In this document: piece by piece, positions 479-55,018 of the stretch
Position numbering within the stretch: the first letter of the stretch is position 1
How the letters are laid out: each line of letters opens with the position of its first letter
From: Escherichia coli
GTDB taxonomy: Bacteria > Pseudomonadota > Gammaproteobacteria > Enterobacterales > Enterobacteriaceae
Length of the DNA: 64,000 nt
Direction: 5' to 3' (one strand)
Assembly: GCF_003790525.1 (NCBI RefSeq)
Contig: NZ_CP033635.1
The notes under the pieces: model-generated
What the model was told of the DNA's origin: nothing
Databases searched by the model: none
The model's input: the letters and a program-made list of their open reading frames with translations, nothing else
Translations under genes and position numbers: made by a program

Positions 479-1750
479 ATGCAGTATGAAGATGAAAACG
501 GCGTGAATGAACCGTCACGCCGACGTTTACTGAAAGGGATTGGTGCGTTGGCGCTGGCGGGAAGTTGTCCGGTCGCTCATGCACAAAAAACGCAAAGTGC
601 ACCGGGCACGCTTTCACCGGATGCGCGCAGTGAAGCGCAGCCGTTTTATGGCGAACATCAGGCGGGTATTCTGACGCCGCAGCAGGCGGCAATGATGCTG
701 GTGGCGTTTGATGTGCTTGCCAGCGATAAAACCGATCTTGAACGGTTGTTTCGCTTGTTGACTCAGCGTTTTGCTTTTCTGACTCAGGGCGGAGCGGCAC
801 CAGAAACGCCAAATCCGCGCCTGCCACCACTCGATTCCGGCATTCTTGGCGGCTACATTGCGTCCGATAATCTCACCATAACGTTATCGGTGGGCCATTC
901 ATTGTTTGATGAGCGGTTTGGCCTTACACCGCAGATGCCGAAAAAGTTGCAGAAAATGACGCGTTTCCCCAACGACTCGCTGGATGCGGCGTTATGTCAT
1001 GGTGATGTGTTGCTACAAATTTGCGCCAACACCCAGGACACGGTGATCCATGCGCTGCGCGATATCATCAAACACACGCCGGATTTGCTCAGCGTGCGCT
1101 GGAAGCGGGAAGGGTTTATTTCCGATCACGCAGCGCGTAGTAAAGGCAAAGAGACGCCGATAAATTTGCTGGGTTTTAAAGACGGCACAGCCAATCCCGA
1201 TAGCCAGAATGCGAAGTTGATGCAAAAAGTGGTGTGGGTGACGGCAGATCAGCAGGAGCCTGCGTGGACAATCGGTGGCAGCTATCAGGCGGTGCGGTTG
1301 ATTCAGTTTCGGGTGGAGTTTTGGGACAGAACGCCACTGAAAGAACAGCAGACGATTTTTGGTCGCGACAAACAAACTGGTGCGCCGCTGGGCATGCAGC
1401 ACGAGCATGATGTTCCCGATTACGCCAGCGATCCGGAAGGGAAGGTGATCGCGCTGGACAGCCATATTCGGCTGGCGAATCCCCGCACGCCAGAGAGTGA
1501 GTCAAGTCTGATGCTGCGTCGTGGCTACAGTTATTCACTGGGCGTCACCAACTCCGGGCAACTCGATATGGGGCTACTGTTTGTCTGCTACCAACACGAT
1601 CTGGAAAAGGGCTTCCTGACAGTACAAAAAAGGTTGAATGGCGAGGCGCTGGAGGAATATGTCAAACCTATCGGTGGCGGCTATTTCTTTGCGCTGCCGG
1701 GTGTGAAGGACGCGAACGATTATCTCGGAAGCGCATTATTGCGGGTTTAA
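479..1750 (+). CDS. efeB: Dyp-type peroxidase / deferrochelatase EfeB with Tat signal
   Basis: 423-aa ORF; N-terminal twin-arginine motif [16 protein letters not shown]; Dyp peroxidase-like length; operon context. Confidence 0.93.
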
Positions 1751-1759
1751 TGTTTTTAG

Positions 1760-1900
1760 GCGTATAAGGCATTCGTGCGCAGATGCCTGATGCGACGCTT
1801 GCGCGTCTTATCATGCCTACAATCGGTGCGGGTTCGGTAGGCTGAATAAGGCGGTCACGCCGCATCCGGCGTTCGTGCGTTGATGCCTGATGCGAATCCT
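1760..1900. repeat. REP/BIME palindromic repeat cluster
   Basis: repeated gcctgatgcga...cttatca / cacgccgcatccggc motifs typical of enterobacterial REP elements in the efeB-phoH intergenic region. Confidence 0.7.
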
Positions 1901-1927
1901 GCTGAAAGCACACAGCTTTTTTCATCA

Positions 1928-2094: not shown

Positions 2095-3159
2095 ATGGTA
2101 ACGTCCTGTACTGGACATGTTTTAGATAATCAACGCGCCACCACTCGCGGAGTTTTCTCCTCCGGTAGTCATCTCGTCACTTTGCATTTTCAACCTCATC
2201 CTTTCTTTTCATGTGTTACCGACGCCGCAAACGGTGTGCGTAGCCGTTTTTCGGCATTTTATCCAAAAGCAAACTATGGCTTACAAGGAAGCCAACCCTC
2301 TGATGTTCGTGCGCATAATCGCGCTGCCAACGGCGCGTGTGATGAATACAAACAACTCAAGGTGCTCTCCATGGGAAGACAAAAAGCAGTGATCAAAGCT
2401 CGTCGCGAGGCAAAACGTGTGCTGAGACGGGATTCGCGCAGCCATAAGCAGCGTGAAGAAGAATCGGTCACCTCGCTTGTGCAGATGAGCGGCGTAGAAG
2501 CCATTGGTATGGCCCGCGACAGTCGCGATACTTCGCCCATCCTCGCGCGAAATGAAGCGCAATTGCACTATCTGAAGGCTATTGAGAGTAAGCAGCTGAT
2601 ATTCGCCACGGGCGAAGCCGGGTGCGGAAAAACCTGGATCAGCGCAGCAAAAGCGGCAGAGGCCCTGATACATAAGGATGTCGACAGGATTATCGTCACC
2701 CGTCCAGTTCTGCAAGCCGATGAAGATCTTGGCTTCTTACCTGGTGATATCGCAGAAAAGTTTGCTCCCTATTTTCGCCCGGTCTACGATGTGCTGGTTC
2801 GGCGCTTAGGGGCTTCCTTTATGCAGTACTGCCTGCGACCAGAAATAGGGAAGGTGGAAATTGCGCCGTTCGCCTATATGCGTGGACGTACCTTTGAAAA
2901 TGCAGTCGTCATTCTTGACGAGGCGCAGAATGTGACTGCCGCGCAAATGAAAATGTTTTTAACCCGCCTCGGGGAGAACGTGACGGTTATCGTCAACGGT
3001 GATATCACGCAATGCGATTTGCCTCGCGGCGTGCGCTCCGGATTAAGTGACGCGCTGGAACGTTTCGAAGAAGATGAAATGGTCGGGATCGTCCGATTCG
3101 GTAAAGAGGATTGCGTACGTTCAGCACTTTGCCAACGTACGCTACATGCATACAGTTAA
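2095..3159 (+). CDS. phoH: PhoH, phosphate-starvation-inducible ATPase (PhoH/PhoL family)
   Basis: 354-aa ORF with Walker A GEAGCGKT; internal in-frame start at 2372 (MGRQKAVIKA...) could give a shorter product. Confidence 0.9.
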   Translation: MVTSCTGHVLDNQRATTRGVFSSGSHLVTLHFQPHPFFSCVTDAANGVRSRFSAFYPKANYGLQGSQPSDVRAHNRAANGACDEYKQLKVLSMGRQKAVIKARREAKRVLRRDSRSHKQREEESVTSLVQMSGVEAIGMARDSRDTSPILARNEAQLHYLKAIESKQLIFATGEAGCGKTWISAAKAAEALIHKDVDRIIVTRPVLQADEDLGFLPGDIAEKFAPYFRPVYDVLVRRLGASFMQYCLRPEIGKVEIAPFAYMRGRTFENAVVILDEAQNVTAAQMKMFLTRLGENVTVIVNGDITQCDLPRGVRSGLSDALERFEEDEMVGIVRFGKEDCVRSALCQRTLHAYS

Positions 3160-3174
3160 GTGTATTATCGGCGC

Positions 3175-3205
3175 AGAGCCCGGGCGAACCGGGCTTTGTT
3201 TTATT
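3175..3205 (+). terminator. rho-independent terminator after phoH
   Basis: GC stem agcccgggcgaaccgggct followed by T-run ttgttttatttc. Confidence 0.6.
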
Positions 3206-3721
3206 TCATTAACAGCAAAGACTTTCACTTCAGGTTAACGTTCTGGGGGGCGACTTTGAGCGTGTTGATAAGCTGAAATTAATTCTGGTTTAGATGCTTT
3301 TACCAGGCATTTTTCGTCATAGCACGCGACCAATGTAATGCCTCCAGCGCGGAGAGTTTTTTGCCTATCTTTTTCCAGCCATTCAACCTGTACAGGAGGT
3401 CTGGTGCCAATTTTGCGTATGAGGTTTAATCAACAATGAGCCAAAATTTGACTGACTGATTAACACCAAATATATTCTCCTGATTTTATTTTTTAGGGAT
3501 AATATTAAAAATATAAGGTTAATCTTAATTAAATTTTTGGCTAATATTGTGTCTTGTTATTTTTTGTGGACGGCAAGCCGCAATGGCAAAATAGGTATGG
3601 TTGTAATAATCAAAACATGATACTAACTATATATAGATCGTTGAATTGTTGGCATGTAACTCGCTACAGCGAGTAGCGTTAGTAATGAAATATAATCAAC
3701 ATGGATAGGTGAAGATTAATT

Positions 3722-4408
3722 ATGAGCTTTATGGTTTTTGTAACTTGTTTGACAATTGCATTTGTCGCCGGTTTTGCTGTTGCCAGAAAATTGACACTCC
3801 GAAAAGTTGCCTCATCGGTAATCATCACTAAATCGCAACCAGTTCCTTCCTCTGCAACTTCCCCTGCTGTTAAGGCGTCGACAAGGAGCTATACACCGCA
3901 GAAAACCTATCGTGACTCTCGTTGGCAAGAACGAGATGAGTTGTTCCAGGGAATGGTTGCCGAAGGTATTTTATTGGAAGGAAAAGAGTGGTTAATTACG
4001 CGTTGTGAAAAAATCTATTTTGATAATCTGGAGAAATGGTTTGGACATTATTGTCATATCCATTGCCAGGTCTCTCTGGGGCGCTTGATCAACTTTCCAG
4101 AACAACCCGAGTTTAGCGAAGAAGAAAGAAAGCGTTTCTTTGCAATTTATAATGGAATGGCAATGGATTATGTTCTGGTTTCAAAGAAGAACAATAAAAT
4201 AGTCTGTGTTATTGAGCTGGATGATCCGAGTCATGAAAGGGCAGATCGCATTATTCGTGACCGTTGGTTGAATACGATTATGACTATTGCACGGGTGCCT
4301 TTTGTACGAGCTTCTGTCACTAAATTGGATGAAATCCCTCCGGTCTGGGATACCCGTGACAAAATGCGCCCATTAGCCGCGGCGACAAAGGGTGAACCGT
4401 TGCATTAA
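3722..4408 (+). CDS. hypothetical membrane-anchored protein; N-terminal TM helix, Ser/Pro/Thr-rich linker, Cys/His cluster, DUF2726-like (PD-(D/E)xK-fold-like) C-terminal module; not present at this position in K-12
   Basis: 228-aa ORF preceded by very AT-rich leader; hydrophobic N-terminus MSFMVFVTCLTIAFVAGFAVA; motif MDYVLVSKKNNKIVCVIELDDPSHERADRIIRDRWL resembles the DUF2726 core; about 40% GC on hand count of first 120 nt. Confidence 0.6.
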   Translation: MSFMVFVTCLTIAFVAGFAVARKLTLRKVASSVIITKSQPVPSSATSPAVKASTRSYTPQKTYRDSRWQERDELFQGMVAEGILLEGKEWLITRCEKIYFDNLEKWFGHYCHIHCQVSLGRLINFPEQPEFSEEERKRFFAIYNGMAMDYVLVSKKNNKIVCVIELDDPSHERADRIIRDRWLNTIMTIARVPFVRASVTKLDEIPPVWDTRDKMRPLAAATKGEPLH

Positions 4409-4499
4409 CTAAGTACCCCGATCGGGGCTTCTCATCCCCCCGGTGTGTGCAATATACGAAAAAAAAGCCCGTACTTTCGTACGAGCTCTTCTTTAAAGA

Positions 4500-4587
4500 T
4501 GGCGGTGAGGGGGGGATTCGAACCCCCGATACGTTGCCGTATACACACTTTCCAGGCGTGCTCCTTCAGCCACTCGGACACCTCACC
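4500..4587 (-). tRNA. serX: tRNA-Ser (anticodon GGA), serX-like
   Basis: reverse complement reads GGTGAGGTGTCCGAGTGGCTGAAGGAGCACGCCTGGAAAGTG...GGTTCGAATCCCCCCCTCACCGCCA with long variable arm and CCA end; A-run on + strand 4462-4469 gives terminator on - strand. Confidence 0.9.
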
Positions 4588-4781
4588 AAATTGTTGTTCC
4601 TGTCTTGCTGGAACGGGCGCTAATTTAGGGAAATCATGACCTGAGGTCAACAAACTTTTTTAAAAAATCGCGCGTTTATTCAAACTTCAATCAATATGCA
4701 GTTTTAATAAGCGAAATTTGCTTTTTTTGCCACCGACCACGGATTTGTTATGCTGGTGGCTTTTGTAGATCATAACGATAA

Positions 4782-10131: not shown

Positions 10132-10885
10132 GATGAAACCCCGCTTTTTTTATTGATCGCACACCTGACAGCTGCCTCTAAAATAGAAGCACCAGAAGTA
10201 CTGACAGATGTTGCACTGCTGTGTGTAGTAATAAATCAGCCCTAAATGGGTAAAATATAAAACTAATGGATTACATCTGATTTCAATCTAGCCATTACAA
10301 ATCTTAAATCAAGTGTTAAACATGTAACTAAATGTAACTCGTTATATTGAAATGTTAATCTTAAGGTTTTATTAAGTTTAGAAATGATAGAAAAGTTGTA
10401 CATTTAGTTTTTATTGCACAATTTTAAAAAATCATACAAATGGTGCTAACTTGCTAATAATGCATATAAAAAATATTTCGGTGTAGTCCTTTCGTCATGT
10501 AAAACGTTCTTGTTTTTTCTCTACACCTCCTTGGACAATTTTTTACTGCAAAAAGACGAGGTTTGTCACGGCTTGTGCGCAAGACATATCGCAGCAATCA
10601 GCGACGGGCAAGAAGAATGGCTGTCTGGTGATTTTTGATTGCGAAAAACGGAGATTTAAAAGAAAACAAAATATTTTTTTGCGTAGATAACAGCGTATTT
10701 ACGTGGGTTTTAATACTTTGGTATGAACAAAAAAAGAAAAATACAACGCGCGGGTGAGTTATTAAAAATATTTCCGCAGACATACTTTCCATCGTAACGC
10801 AGCGTTAACAAAATACAGGTTGCGTTAACAACCAAGTTGAAATGATTTAATTTCTTAAATGTACGACCAGGTCCAGGGTGACAAC
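10132..10885. promoter_or_regulatory. csgD-csgB divergent intergenic regulatory region (csgDEFG and csgBAC promoters, long csgD 5' UTR)
   Basis: about 750 bp non-coding, strongly AT-rich with A/T tracts, between divergently transcribed csgD and csgB. Confidence 0.8.
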
Positions 10886-20340: not shown

Positions 20341-20350
20341 AAACGTAGTT

Positions 20351-20450
20351 GCCTGATGCGCTACGCTTATCAGGCCTACATCGCTCCTGCAATGTATTGA
20401 TTTTGCAAGATTTTGTGGGTCGGATAAGGCGTTCACGCCACATCTGGCAA
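20351..20450. repeat. REP palindromic elements downstream of opgH
   Basis: gcctgatgcgctacgcttatcaggcctaca and ggataaggcgttcacgccacatc REP-like motifs. Confidence 0.65.
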
Positions 20451-20465
20451 AAACAACGAGCCAAT

Positions 20466-29544: not shown

Positions 29545-29649
29545 TAATCTCTATGCTCCGGCTGAAGGGATGTTTTTGCCGGACACAAAGGATAAGCGGA
29601 AACGTTTTCCTTTGCACGAAAAATAAAGGGCGCGAATGCGCCCTCGTGA

Positions 29650-52071: not shown

Positions 52072-52432
52072 CGTAACTTACTCATTATTCTTACATTGAC
52101 GACTAAGCTGCGGGCAAAGTAACGCCTTTCCGGGTGTGAACCGATGGCCTCGTGTCTAGTCGCGTCGCCAACCTCACGGTTATCGTCAGCTCAAAGAGGC
52201 GCAGAGTGTCGGTTGCCCGTTTTTCATGCGGAAAAACAGCGCAATTATCAAAGAAACAGACTGGGTATTACTCTCCAGAAATATTTCCATCTACCGGTAA
52301 GGACTGCAACCCGCAGCCCGCTAACTGCCTGAAAGATCAATACGTCTTACGCCATTGCTGCGTGGATGATCGGTCGGGCAAAATGGGTTATTCCGTAAAA
52401 TTTCTTGTTTTAACAAGGATGGACACGGAAAC
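52072..52432 (-). promoter_or_regulatory. rne 5' untranslated leader (autoregulatory) and promoter region
   Basis: long non-coding region upstream of rne start; extent assigned from established knowledge of the roughly 360-nt rne leader, not resolved from sequence. Confidence 0.55.
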
Positions 52433-53603: not shown

Positions 53604-53713
53604 TACAAGCATATAAACCTGATAATGGGTGTTGGGGTTCAGTTCAGTTTACGCCGCATCAGGCCGCCAGCACCGATTGCCGGATGCGACGTAACCGCAT
53701 CCGGCGCAAACAA

Positions 53714-54298
53714 CTATCCCATCAGCGGGTTTTTCCCTTCCCGACGTAACATCTGACACAGCGCGATTAGCGGTAAACCAACCAGCGTGTTAGGATCACG
53801 CCCCTCTAAACGCTCAAACAGCGTAATGCCAAATCCTTCACTCTTAAAGCTACCCGCGCAGTGCAGAGGATGCTCCTTACGCACGTAATTATCAATCTCC
53901 GCCTCGCTCAGGTGACGGAAATGGACGTCAAAAGGCTCCACTTCTGTTTGCAGATGCCCATTCGCCGAATTAAACAACGCCAGTCCAGTATAGAAGGTGA
54001 CGATATTGCCGCTGGCTTTGCGTAATTGCAGACGGGCATTTTCTTCCGTTAACGGTTTACCGGTGATTTCGCCATCAAGAACACATACCTGGTCTGAACC
54101 AATAATTAAATGATCCGGATAACGTGACGCCAGAGATTGCGCTTTTTCTTGTGCCAGTCGAAGCACCAACTGTCGCGGTGATTCGTCGCTGCGTGGGGTT
54201 TCGTCGACCTCTGGTGCTGCACATTCAAAAGAGATTTGCAGTTTTTCCAGAAGAGCGCGACGCCAGGGCGAAGTGGAGGCTAAAATAAGTTTAGGCAT
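53714..54298 (-). CDS. yceF: Maf-like nucleotide pyrophosphatase YceF
   Basis: 194-aa product from [20 protein letters not shown] (Maf family). Confidence 0.9.
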
Positions 54299-54339
54299 AT
54301 TTTTTTCCATCAGATATAGCGTATTGATGATAGCCATTT

Positions 54340-55018
<679 letters not shown>

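Follow-up and report, generated by a model that had tools for sequence, protein, structure and literature searches.

A REP is defined as an imperfect palindrome that folds into a hairpin with an internal mismatch and carries a conserved GTAG or CTAC at its foot (PMC3333891), and its consensus has been given as GCC(G/T)GATGCG(G/A)CG ... CG(C/T)CTTATC(C/A)GGCCTAC (PMC12306157). Two classes of composite element are relevant to the locus described here. In BIME-1 elements a long, conserved L linker that carries an IHF site stands between a single Y REP and a single Z1 REP. BIME-2 elements are tandem arrays in which Y and Z2 REPs alternate, with a short S linker and s, l or r flanks, and their length is polymorphic among isolates (PMC3333891, PMC1187871). 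The model BIME-2 array is REP325 of K-12, located between yjdM and yjdN, which contains 12 REPs, is the source of the Rfam family naRNA4 and has been shown both to terminate transcription partially in a Rho-dependent manner and to stabilise the upstream mRNA (bioRxiv 10.64898/2026.03.23.713779). REP325 and the BIMEs that flank rayT in K-12 (the REPtron), both of which are Y/Z2 arrays in the literature, were used as references for subtyping. Both repeat at exactly 100 bp and are built from 36-nt Y REPs and 34-nt Z2 REPs, joined by linkers that measure 17 and 13 nt. The closest described element by position is REP95 of K-12, which is listed as 'Tandem' at NC_000913.3 1084683-1084768, between efeB and phoH (supplement table, bioRxiv 10.64898/2026.03.23.713779).

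The window (the whole 64,000-nt stretch of Escherichia coli DNA analysed here) was 100% identical to the chromosome of E. coli SMS-3-5 (NC_010498.1), and gene names and limits around the efeB-phoH spacer were taken from the SMS-3-5 RefSeq annotation (NC_010498.1) together with the list of open reading frames. The annotated gene ahead of efeB in the window is the 3′ end of efeO. The efeB coding sequence occupies 479-1750 (+), with its TAA stop codon at 1748-1750, and is followed on the same strand by phoH, a long open reading frame at 2095-3159 for which RefSeq gives a start at 2371. Slightly beyond the limits of the window is efeU, which the SMS-3-5 annotation gives as an intact gene and that of K-12 MG1655 as a pseudogene. 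According to the initial annotation, the efeB-phoH spacer holds a BIME/REP cluster. This was borne out by matches to the REP consensus, by significant although sub-threshold matches to the Rfam family naRNA4, by alignment to BIME-2 arrays and by orthology to REP95, and the cluster is almost certainly the SMS-3-5 counterpart of K-12 REP95, a single BIME-2 unit. It is extragenic, being situated in the 3′ untranslated region of efeB between the stop codon and phoH. A 115-aa open reading frame on the minus strand (1668-2015) merely traverses the repeats and was rejected as a feature. The spacer that is open to the repeat is limited downstream by the sequence CTGTCATCACTCTGTCATC (1928-1946, +), which we take to be the Pho box of the phoH promoter from the Pho-box consensus, and which was the same in all aligned alleles. 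The regulation of phoH and its Pho box were reportedly described by Kim et al. in 1993.

Following the efeB stop codon, the cluster is made up of a REP remnant, a head-side linker, a Y REP, an S linker, an inverted Z2 REP, the head-side linker again and half of a Y REP. The remnant (1757-1771, TAGGCGTATAAGGCA), which had been overlooked in the initial annotation, derives from a Z2-type inverted REP and lacks 18 nt, comprising the loop and the 3′ arm, relative to strains with a full copy. In UTI 4/0, M00057 and E69 the alignment contains a full inverted REP at this position (TAGGCG.ATAAGGCGTTTACGCCGCA.C.GGCG). The 18-nt deletion is flanked by direct repeats of AGGCGTT, and the deleted form is common to SMS-3-5, K-12 and O157. 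The first copy of the head-side linker (1772-1784, TTCGTGCGCAGAT) is an s/l-type BIME-2 flanking motif, to which TTGTGCGCAGAT corresponds when the BIME-2 of the K-12 REPtron is aligned. The complete Y-type REP (1785-1820, +), which begins 34 nt past the efeB TAA, is 36 nt long and reads GCCTGATGCGACG-CTTGCG-CGTCTTATCATGC-CTAC, with the loop CTTGCG and the foot tetranucleotide CTAC at 1817-1820. It is joined tail to tail, through a 16-nt S-type linker (1821-1836, AATCGGTGCGGGTTCG), whose position and length class match those of the 17-nt linkers in REP325 and the REPtron, to a complete Z2-type REP of 34 nt in inverse orientation (1837-1870, −; GTAGGCTGAATAAGGCGGTCACGCCGCATCCGGC). On the plus strand the latter reads GTAG-GCTGAATAAGGCG-GTCA-CGCCGCATCCGGC, its foot GTAG occupying 1837-1840. 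The second copy of the head-side linker (1871-1884, GTTCGTGCGTTGAT) lies inside a 42-nt direct repeat, and the truncated Y REP (1885-1896, +) retains only its first 12 nt, the 5′ arm (GCCTGATGCGAA), which runs directly into the unique flank, GCGAATCC. The two copies of the direct repeat (1761-1802 and 1861-1902) are 79% identical, are spaced by exactly 100 bp and frame the unit, of which the SMS-3-5 locus holds about 1.4 copies.

This corrected anatomy separates complete REPs from remnants. The three strings that the initial annotation had quoted as REP palindromes were each found at the place given for them (1785-1821, 1852-1871 and 1884-1899), and only the first can stand as such, being the complete Y REP plus one base. 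The second is confined to the loop and 3′ arm of the inverted REP at 1837-1870. The third consists of the 5′ arm of the truncated Y REP and the adjoining flank, and forms no palindrome alone. Of the REP-derived pieces, only two are complete.

Two checks had been proposed along with the initial annotation, a formal search for REPs and a comparison of their copy number between strains, and both were carried out. For the former, the pattern GCCKGATGCGRCG, a loop of N6 or N4 and CGYCTTATCMGGCCTAC was searched for in the window, with 100 dinucleotide shuffles of the window as a control. One match to the consensus, at 1785-1820 (+), had a single mismatch and another, at 1837-1870 (−), had two, and these were the sole matches with three mismatches or fewer in the 64 kb. 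The number expected from the shuffled windows was 0.00, which excludes chance palindromes. The structural definition holds as well, in that the Y REP forms a hairpin with an internal mismatch, and the Z2 REP folds, but weakly on the plus strand. Moreover, the sequence is present in multiple copies; the query region matched a median of five places per genome (megablast), and other REPs were found elsewhere in the window and at K-12 loci. The only Rfam family to match the cluster was naRNA4 (RF02564), the model of a Z2-linker-Y unit of REP325, with hits at 1744-1817 (39.8 bits, E = 5.7e-6) and 1840-1887 (26.1 bits), the latter placing the model's first hairpin on the Z2 REP. Both fell below the gathering score of 59.5, the left unit having lost its first hairpin, and the family was missing from a scan of the whole window at gathering thresholds.

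A 113-nt unit from the window aligned without gaps to REP95, to the 3′ BIME-2 of the K-12 REPtron and to a unit of REP325, with a mean identity of 88%, and the period was 100 bp in the window unit and in all of the aligned references. The linkers in the window are 16 nt (S) and 13-14 nt (head-side). On sequence grounds, the efeB-phoH element is a BIME-2 and not a BIME-1, with the Z2 label assigned from context and from alignment to the Y/Z2 arrays. A BIME-1 was excluded, as the linker is 16 nt long without an IHF-like motif and the Y REP is of the long, 36-nt kind. Two inverted REPs between genes are also found in BIME-1 and RIB/RIP elements. However, the BIME-1 that occurs elsewhere in the window (~20351-20449) has a 29-nt Y REP and a 35-nt linker with AATCAATACATTG on the complementary strand. 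This second locus (20349-20453) is a clear BIME-1 in its own right, composed of the short Y REP GCCTGATGCGCTACGCTTATCAGGCCTAC, the linker with its IHF-like motif and an inverted Z REP, and its linker was matched above threshold by the Rfam family ES036/CssrF (RF02751) at 20372-20414 (−).

With REP325 the efeB-phoH element shares the alternation of Y REPs with Z2 REPs, a Y REP of 36 nt whose loop is CTTGCG, a 34-nt Z2 REP, short linkers and the 100-bp period, and the Y REPs of the two loci differ by a single base. It differs from REP325 in having two complete REPs rather than 12, in the sequences of its linkers and in the loop of the Z2 REP (TGAC in the window, TAAA in REP325). The functional tests concern REP325. 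The REPtron carries the same Y variant with the foot CATGCCTAC, its Y REPs differing from that of the window only in the loop, and the same head-side linker (TGTGCGCAGA followed by TGCC); its S linker is similar. Unlike the REPtron, the efeB-phoH copy has no adjoining transposase gene. Of the 5,426 complete E. coli genomes, 3,574 had a K-12-like rayT that megablast could detect; in those without a match the gene is either absent or too diverged for megablast.

The interval catalogued as REP95 maps to 1786-1871 of the window, that is, to the two complete REPs. REP95 is in the orthologous position, has equal length and arrangement and an identical Y REP, and aligned without gaps over 371 bases. 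Ten substitutions separate K-12 from SMS-3-5 in the 144-nt repeat region. Three of these lie in the Z2 REP (1845, 1854) or adjoin it (1835), and they weaken the Z2 hairpin in SMS-3-5 (−12.1 kcal/mol, against −15.1 kcal/mol in K-12). The next 206 nt, which contain the phoH promoter, differ at only two positions between the same strains. The repeat is not unusually fast to change, because neighbouring coding DNA is likewise several percent diverged, and in this comparison it is the phoH promoter, rather than the repeat, that departs from the norm, in being unusually conserved. The element has already been catalogued, it belongs to the most abundant repeat family of E. coli, and its behaviour is that expected from published work on BIME-2.

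For the comparison between strains, 5,426 complete E. coli genomes were searched with a 351-nt query centred on the repeat. The locus was found in 5,425 of them, in 4,975 at a coverage of at least 80%, and allele structures were established from representatives fetched across the match ranking. About 70% of genomes, including K-12, O157:H7 and SMS-3-5, carry one unit as in the window (allele A). A three-REP form (allele B), with a full left inverted REP, a Y REP and a right inverted REP, and with no right half-Y, accounts for ~1,182 genomes (22%), a count that corresponds to the 80-90% identity band; Nissle 1917 and NRG 857C carry this form with a span longer by 6 bp. In allele C (FDAARGOS_1284, AR_0013) a precise deletion of 100 bp between the 42-nt repeats has left a 44-nt scar and no complete REP. 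Its frequency is roughly 2-3%, as estimated from rank sampling and arithmetic on the coverage counts. Allele D, found in 246 genomes (4.5%; e.g. STLEFF_29 and S1-IND-02-A), is a degenerate BIME-1-like element with a short palindrome, a ~30-nt linker and an inverted REP. An expanded allele of four exact 100-bp units and eight REPs is present in at least one strain, TB06052, in which the position of the half Y continues as full Y REPs inside the array. The half Y (1885-1896) is absent from alleles B and D. The flank GCGAATCC is present in every allele, and the unique sequence GCGAATCCTGCTG... 3′ of the repeat is likewise common to all. The right flank was missing in 44 genomes. A scan of species-representative genomes with a 24-mer of the Pho box yielded two more loci only, in Escherichia sp. 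E1V33, which has the arrangement of allele A with a different S linker, and in E. coli E69, which has the left inverted REP and two units.

Unit number at this one locus is therefore 0 (FDAARGOS_1284, AR_0013), 1, 2 (E69) or 4 (TB06052), always in steps of 100 bp, with two further allele types besides. The tandem arrangement and variable copy number that typify BIME-2 are both found here, and the length polymorphism is that reported for BIME-2 loci (PMC1187871, PMC3333891). The extremes are the four exact units of TB06052 and the 44-nt scar of FDAARGOS_1284 and AR_0013. Natural alleles with 0, 1, 2 and 4 units at the same position would be convenient for testing the effects of REPs on neighbouring genes. 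The description of the cluster as a hot spot for IS insertion, on the other hand, gained no support at this locus. No IS-interrupted allele was seen among the ~140 matches listed, in which the same genome may recur. With a 651-nt query, 5,102 of the 5,425 genomes were covered to at least 80%, and once the 246 genomes with allele D and the 44 without the right flank are subtracted, ~33 remain unexplained. Since the coverage counts leave only these, insertions longer than ~825 bp are present in at most ~33 genomes (0.6%).

The predicted RNA structures are uneven in strength. On the efeB strand the Y REP forms a hairpin of −14.8 kcal/mol (z = −3.6), and the Y and Z2 REPs together form a long joint hairpin of −42.4 kcal/mol (z = −3.2). 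The hairpin of the Z2 REP on its own (−12.1 to −13.4 kcal/mol) is no better than those of shuffled sequences (z = −0.95). In allele B the right-hand Z REP is a perfect hairpin of −21.3 kcal/mol. In E69 the stem of the Y REP, at −20.0 kcal/mol, contains one compensatory change from C-G to U-A. In the O157:H7-type allele of 6535NalR and Z0117EC0133 the Y and Z hairpins have been eroded to −7.5 and −8.7 kcal/mol, with no compensation. The remnant (1761-1772) could instead pair with the 5′ arm of the Y REP (1783-1794), in an alternative hairpin that would start 10 or 11 nt from the stop codon (z = −1.3).

Directly 3′ of the repeats lies a C-rich, G-poor tract (1895-1975, +) with 21 C and 10 G and a GC skew of −0.36 to −0.48, which is a candidate region for Rho loading. 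In K-12, in vitro Rho peaks on the sense strand overlap REP95 both without NusG (P_R10_760, 1084737-1084880) and with NusG (P_N10_988, 1084727-1084869) (bioRxiv 10.64898/2026.03.23.713779). These peaks are equivalent to 1830/1840-1972/1983 of the window and include the C-rich tract. The supplement table of the same study contains no in vivo bicyclomycin-sensitive transcript overlapping REP95 (bioRxiv 10.64898/2026.03.23.713779), and nothing relevant was found in the literature on termination between efeUOB and phoH.

Taken as a whole, the data are probably best explained by a REP95-type BIME-2 unit in the 3′ untranslated region of efeUOB that serves as a leaky operon boundary and modest stabiliser. 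The REP hairpins that close the efeUOB transcript would slow 3′-to-5′ exonucleases and make RNA polymerase pause, and the C-rich tract at 1895-1975 would allow Rho to stop read-through ahead of phoH, so that the element would act as a leaky boundary of the operon and would modestly stabilise efeB mRNA. The roles of operon boundary and mRNA stabiliser are general properties of REPs, which we infer by analogy for the efeB-phoH copy, and for the role of this particular copy as a terminator or stabiliser we consider the chances to be about even. Among the functional readings, a leaky, Rho-assisted boundary is the best supported, from the hairpins, the excess of C over G and the in vitro Rho peak of K-12. 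In its favour are the significant Y and Y plus Z2 hairpins, the C-rich sequence downstream and the compensatory change in E69. Several observations argue against a strong role. The copy has been deleted (2-3%), replaced (4.5%) or has decayed in many lineages, the Z2 hairpin is no more stable than those of shuffled sequences, fragments of REP325 with 2-4 hairpins had no detectable Rho dependence, and REPs do not prolong half-lives genome-wide (bioRxiv 10.64898/2026.03.23.713779). At the level of DNA, units could be gained and lost when the 42-nt repeats, 100 bp apart, recombine or slip or, alternatively, through cleavage and strand transfer by RayT (PMC3333891). It is also possible, by analogy, that the element is a gyrase site, since binding and cleavage by DNA gyrase in vivo, preferentially in Y REPs, has been reported for BIME-2 elements (PMC6379681).

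The chief alternative is that the repeat is a selfish or neutral BIME-2 copy without a function specific to this locus, which is kept because the spacer tolerates it and whose copy number drifts by slippage or through RayT. This is a plausible explanation, although we hold it to be appreciably less probable than a leaky boundary. In its favour, at least five structural alleles share the one spacer, among them the clean 100-bp deletion (~2-3%) and the degenerate element of 246 genomes, and the hairpins have eroded in the O157:H7-type allele. The near-invariance of the phoH promoter (2 of 206 nt between SMS-3-5 and K-12) beside a repeat that differs at 10 of 144 nt fits the same explanation, as does the finding that REP-associated genes do not have longer half-lives genome-wide (bioRxiv 10.64898/2026.03.23.713779). 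However, some REP-derived element has been kept at this position in more than 99% of complete genomes, the in vitro Rho peak lies over the K-12 copy and one stem in E69 has changed in a compensatory manner. Moreover, the ratio of upstream to downstream expression is raised genome-wide in tandem gene pairs separated by REPs (bioRxiv 10.64898/2026.03.23.713779). An extension of the boundary reading, in which the allelic series (0, 1, 2 or 4 units, three-REP and BIME-1-like forms) would set different levels of Rho-dependent insulation between iron- and acid-regulated efeUOB and phosphate-regulated phoH, appears improbable. If it were true, the copy number of REPs would be an inherited control that adjusts both read-through into phoH and the stability of efeB mRNA.

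It is very unlikely that efeUOB is instead bounded by an intrinsic terminator with the REPs as bystanders, whether formed by the hairpin and T6 run at 1901-1922 (+) or by a REP hairpin with that T run. A T6 run is present, and nearly every allele examined, the 0-unit and BIME-1-like forms among them, has the sequence GCTGAAAGCACACAGCTTTTTT unchanged, with slight variation in M00057 and E69. The hairpin with its T6 run was unchanged in 7/8 aligned strains, and the same two genomes, M00057 and E69, were slightly different. Such conservation may equally reflect the upstream region of the phoH promoter. The stem, which lies outside the BIME, has just 4-6 pairs (−4.9 kcal/mol, z = −1.4), and a scan of the plus strand from 1500 to 2500 found no site at which a G+C-rich stem of at least five pairs was followed by a T run. 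The T run, furthermore, begins 47 nt beyond the Z2 hairpin, which is too distant to serve it.

REPs that start within 15 nt of a stop codon have been proposed to stall terminating ribosomes (PMC12306157), which at this locus would lower the translation of efeB. The alternative hairpin between the remnant and the arm of the Y REP does begin 10 nt past the stop codon, but it is no better than those of shuffled sequences (z = −1.3) and competes for bases with the more specific Y hairpin, and the complete Y REP begins 34 nt past the stop, beyond the proposed 15 nt; we regard stalling as highly unlikely. Least credible of all is that the cluster is the gene for a naRNA4-like, nucleoid-associated small RNA, since naRNA4 (RF02564), although the sole Rfam family matched, scored 39.8 and 26.1 bits against a gathering score of 59.5 and the match simply reflects shared REP sequence.

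Other features were observed in the window. Antisense to the 3′ end of phoH, at 2961-3154 (−), the Rfam family Ysr251 (RF02855, 'Yersinia sRNA 251') was matched with 192 bits against a gathering score of 100. Beyond phoH (3160-4650), SMS-3-5 is without the block of pgaD, pgaC, pgaB... that follows this gene in K-12 and most of the strains fetched. In its place are a gene for a 228-aa DUF2726 protein (3722-4408, +) and a tRNA-Ser gene (~4500-4587, −), and then ghrA. Further Rfam matches above threshold were the ES056 sRNA (10187-10278, −), the PyrC leader (29545-29594, −), the RNase E 5′ UTR element (52096-52432, −) and SraB (54292-54460, +). Lastly, a REP-derived pair is located at 53640-53706. 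In it the 3′ half of an inverted REP (TTTACGCCGCATCAGGC) is accompanied by a palindrome, GCCGGATGCG-ACGTAAC-CGCATCCGGC, that is nearly perfect and is unusual in having the complement of its 5′ arm where REPs usually have the CTTATC arm.
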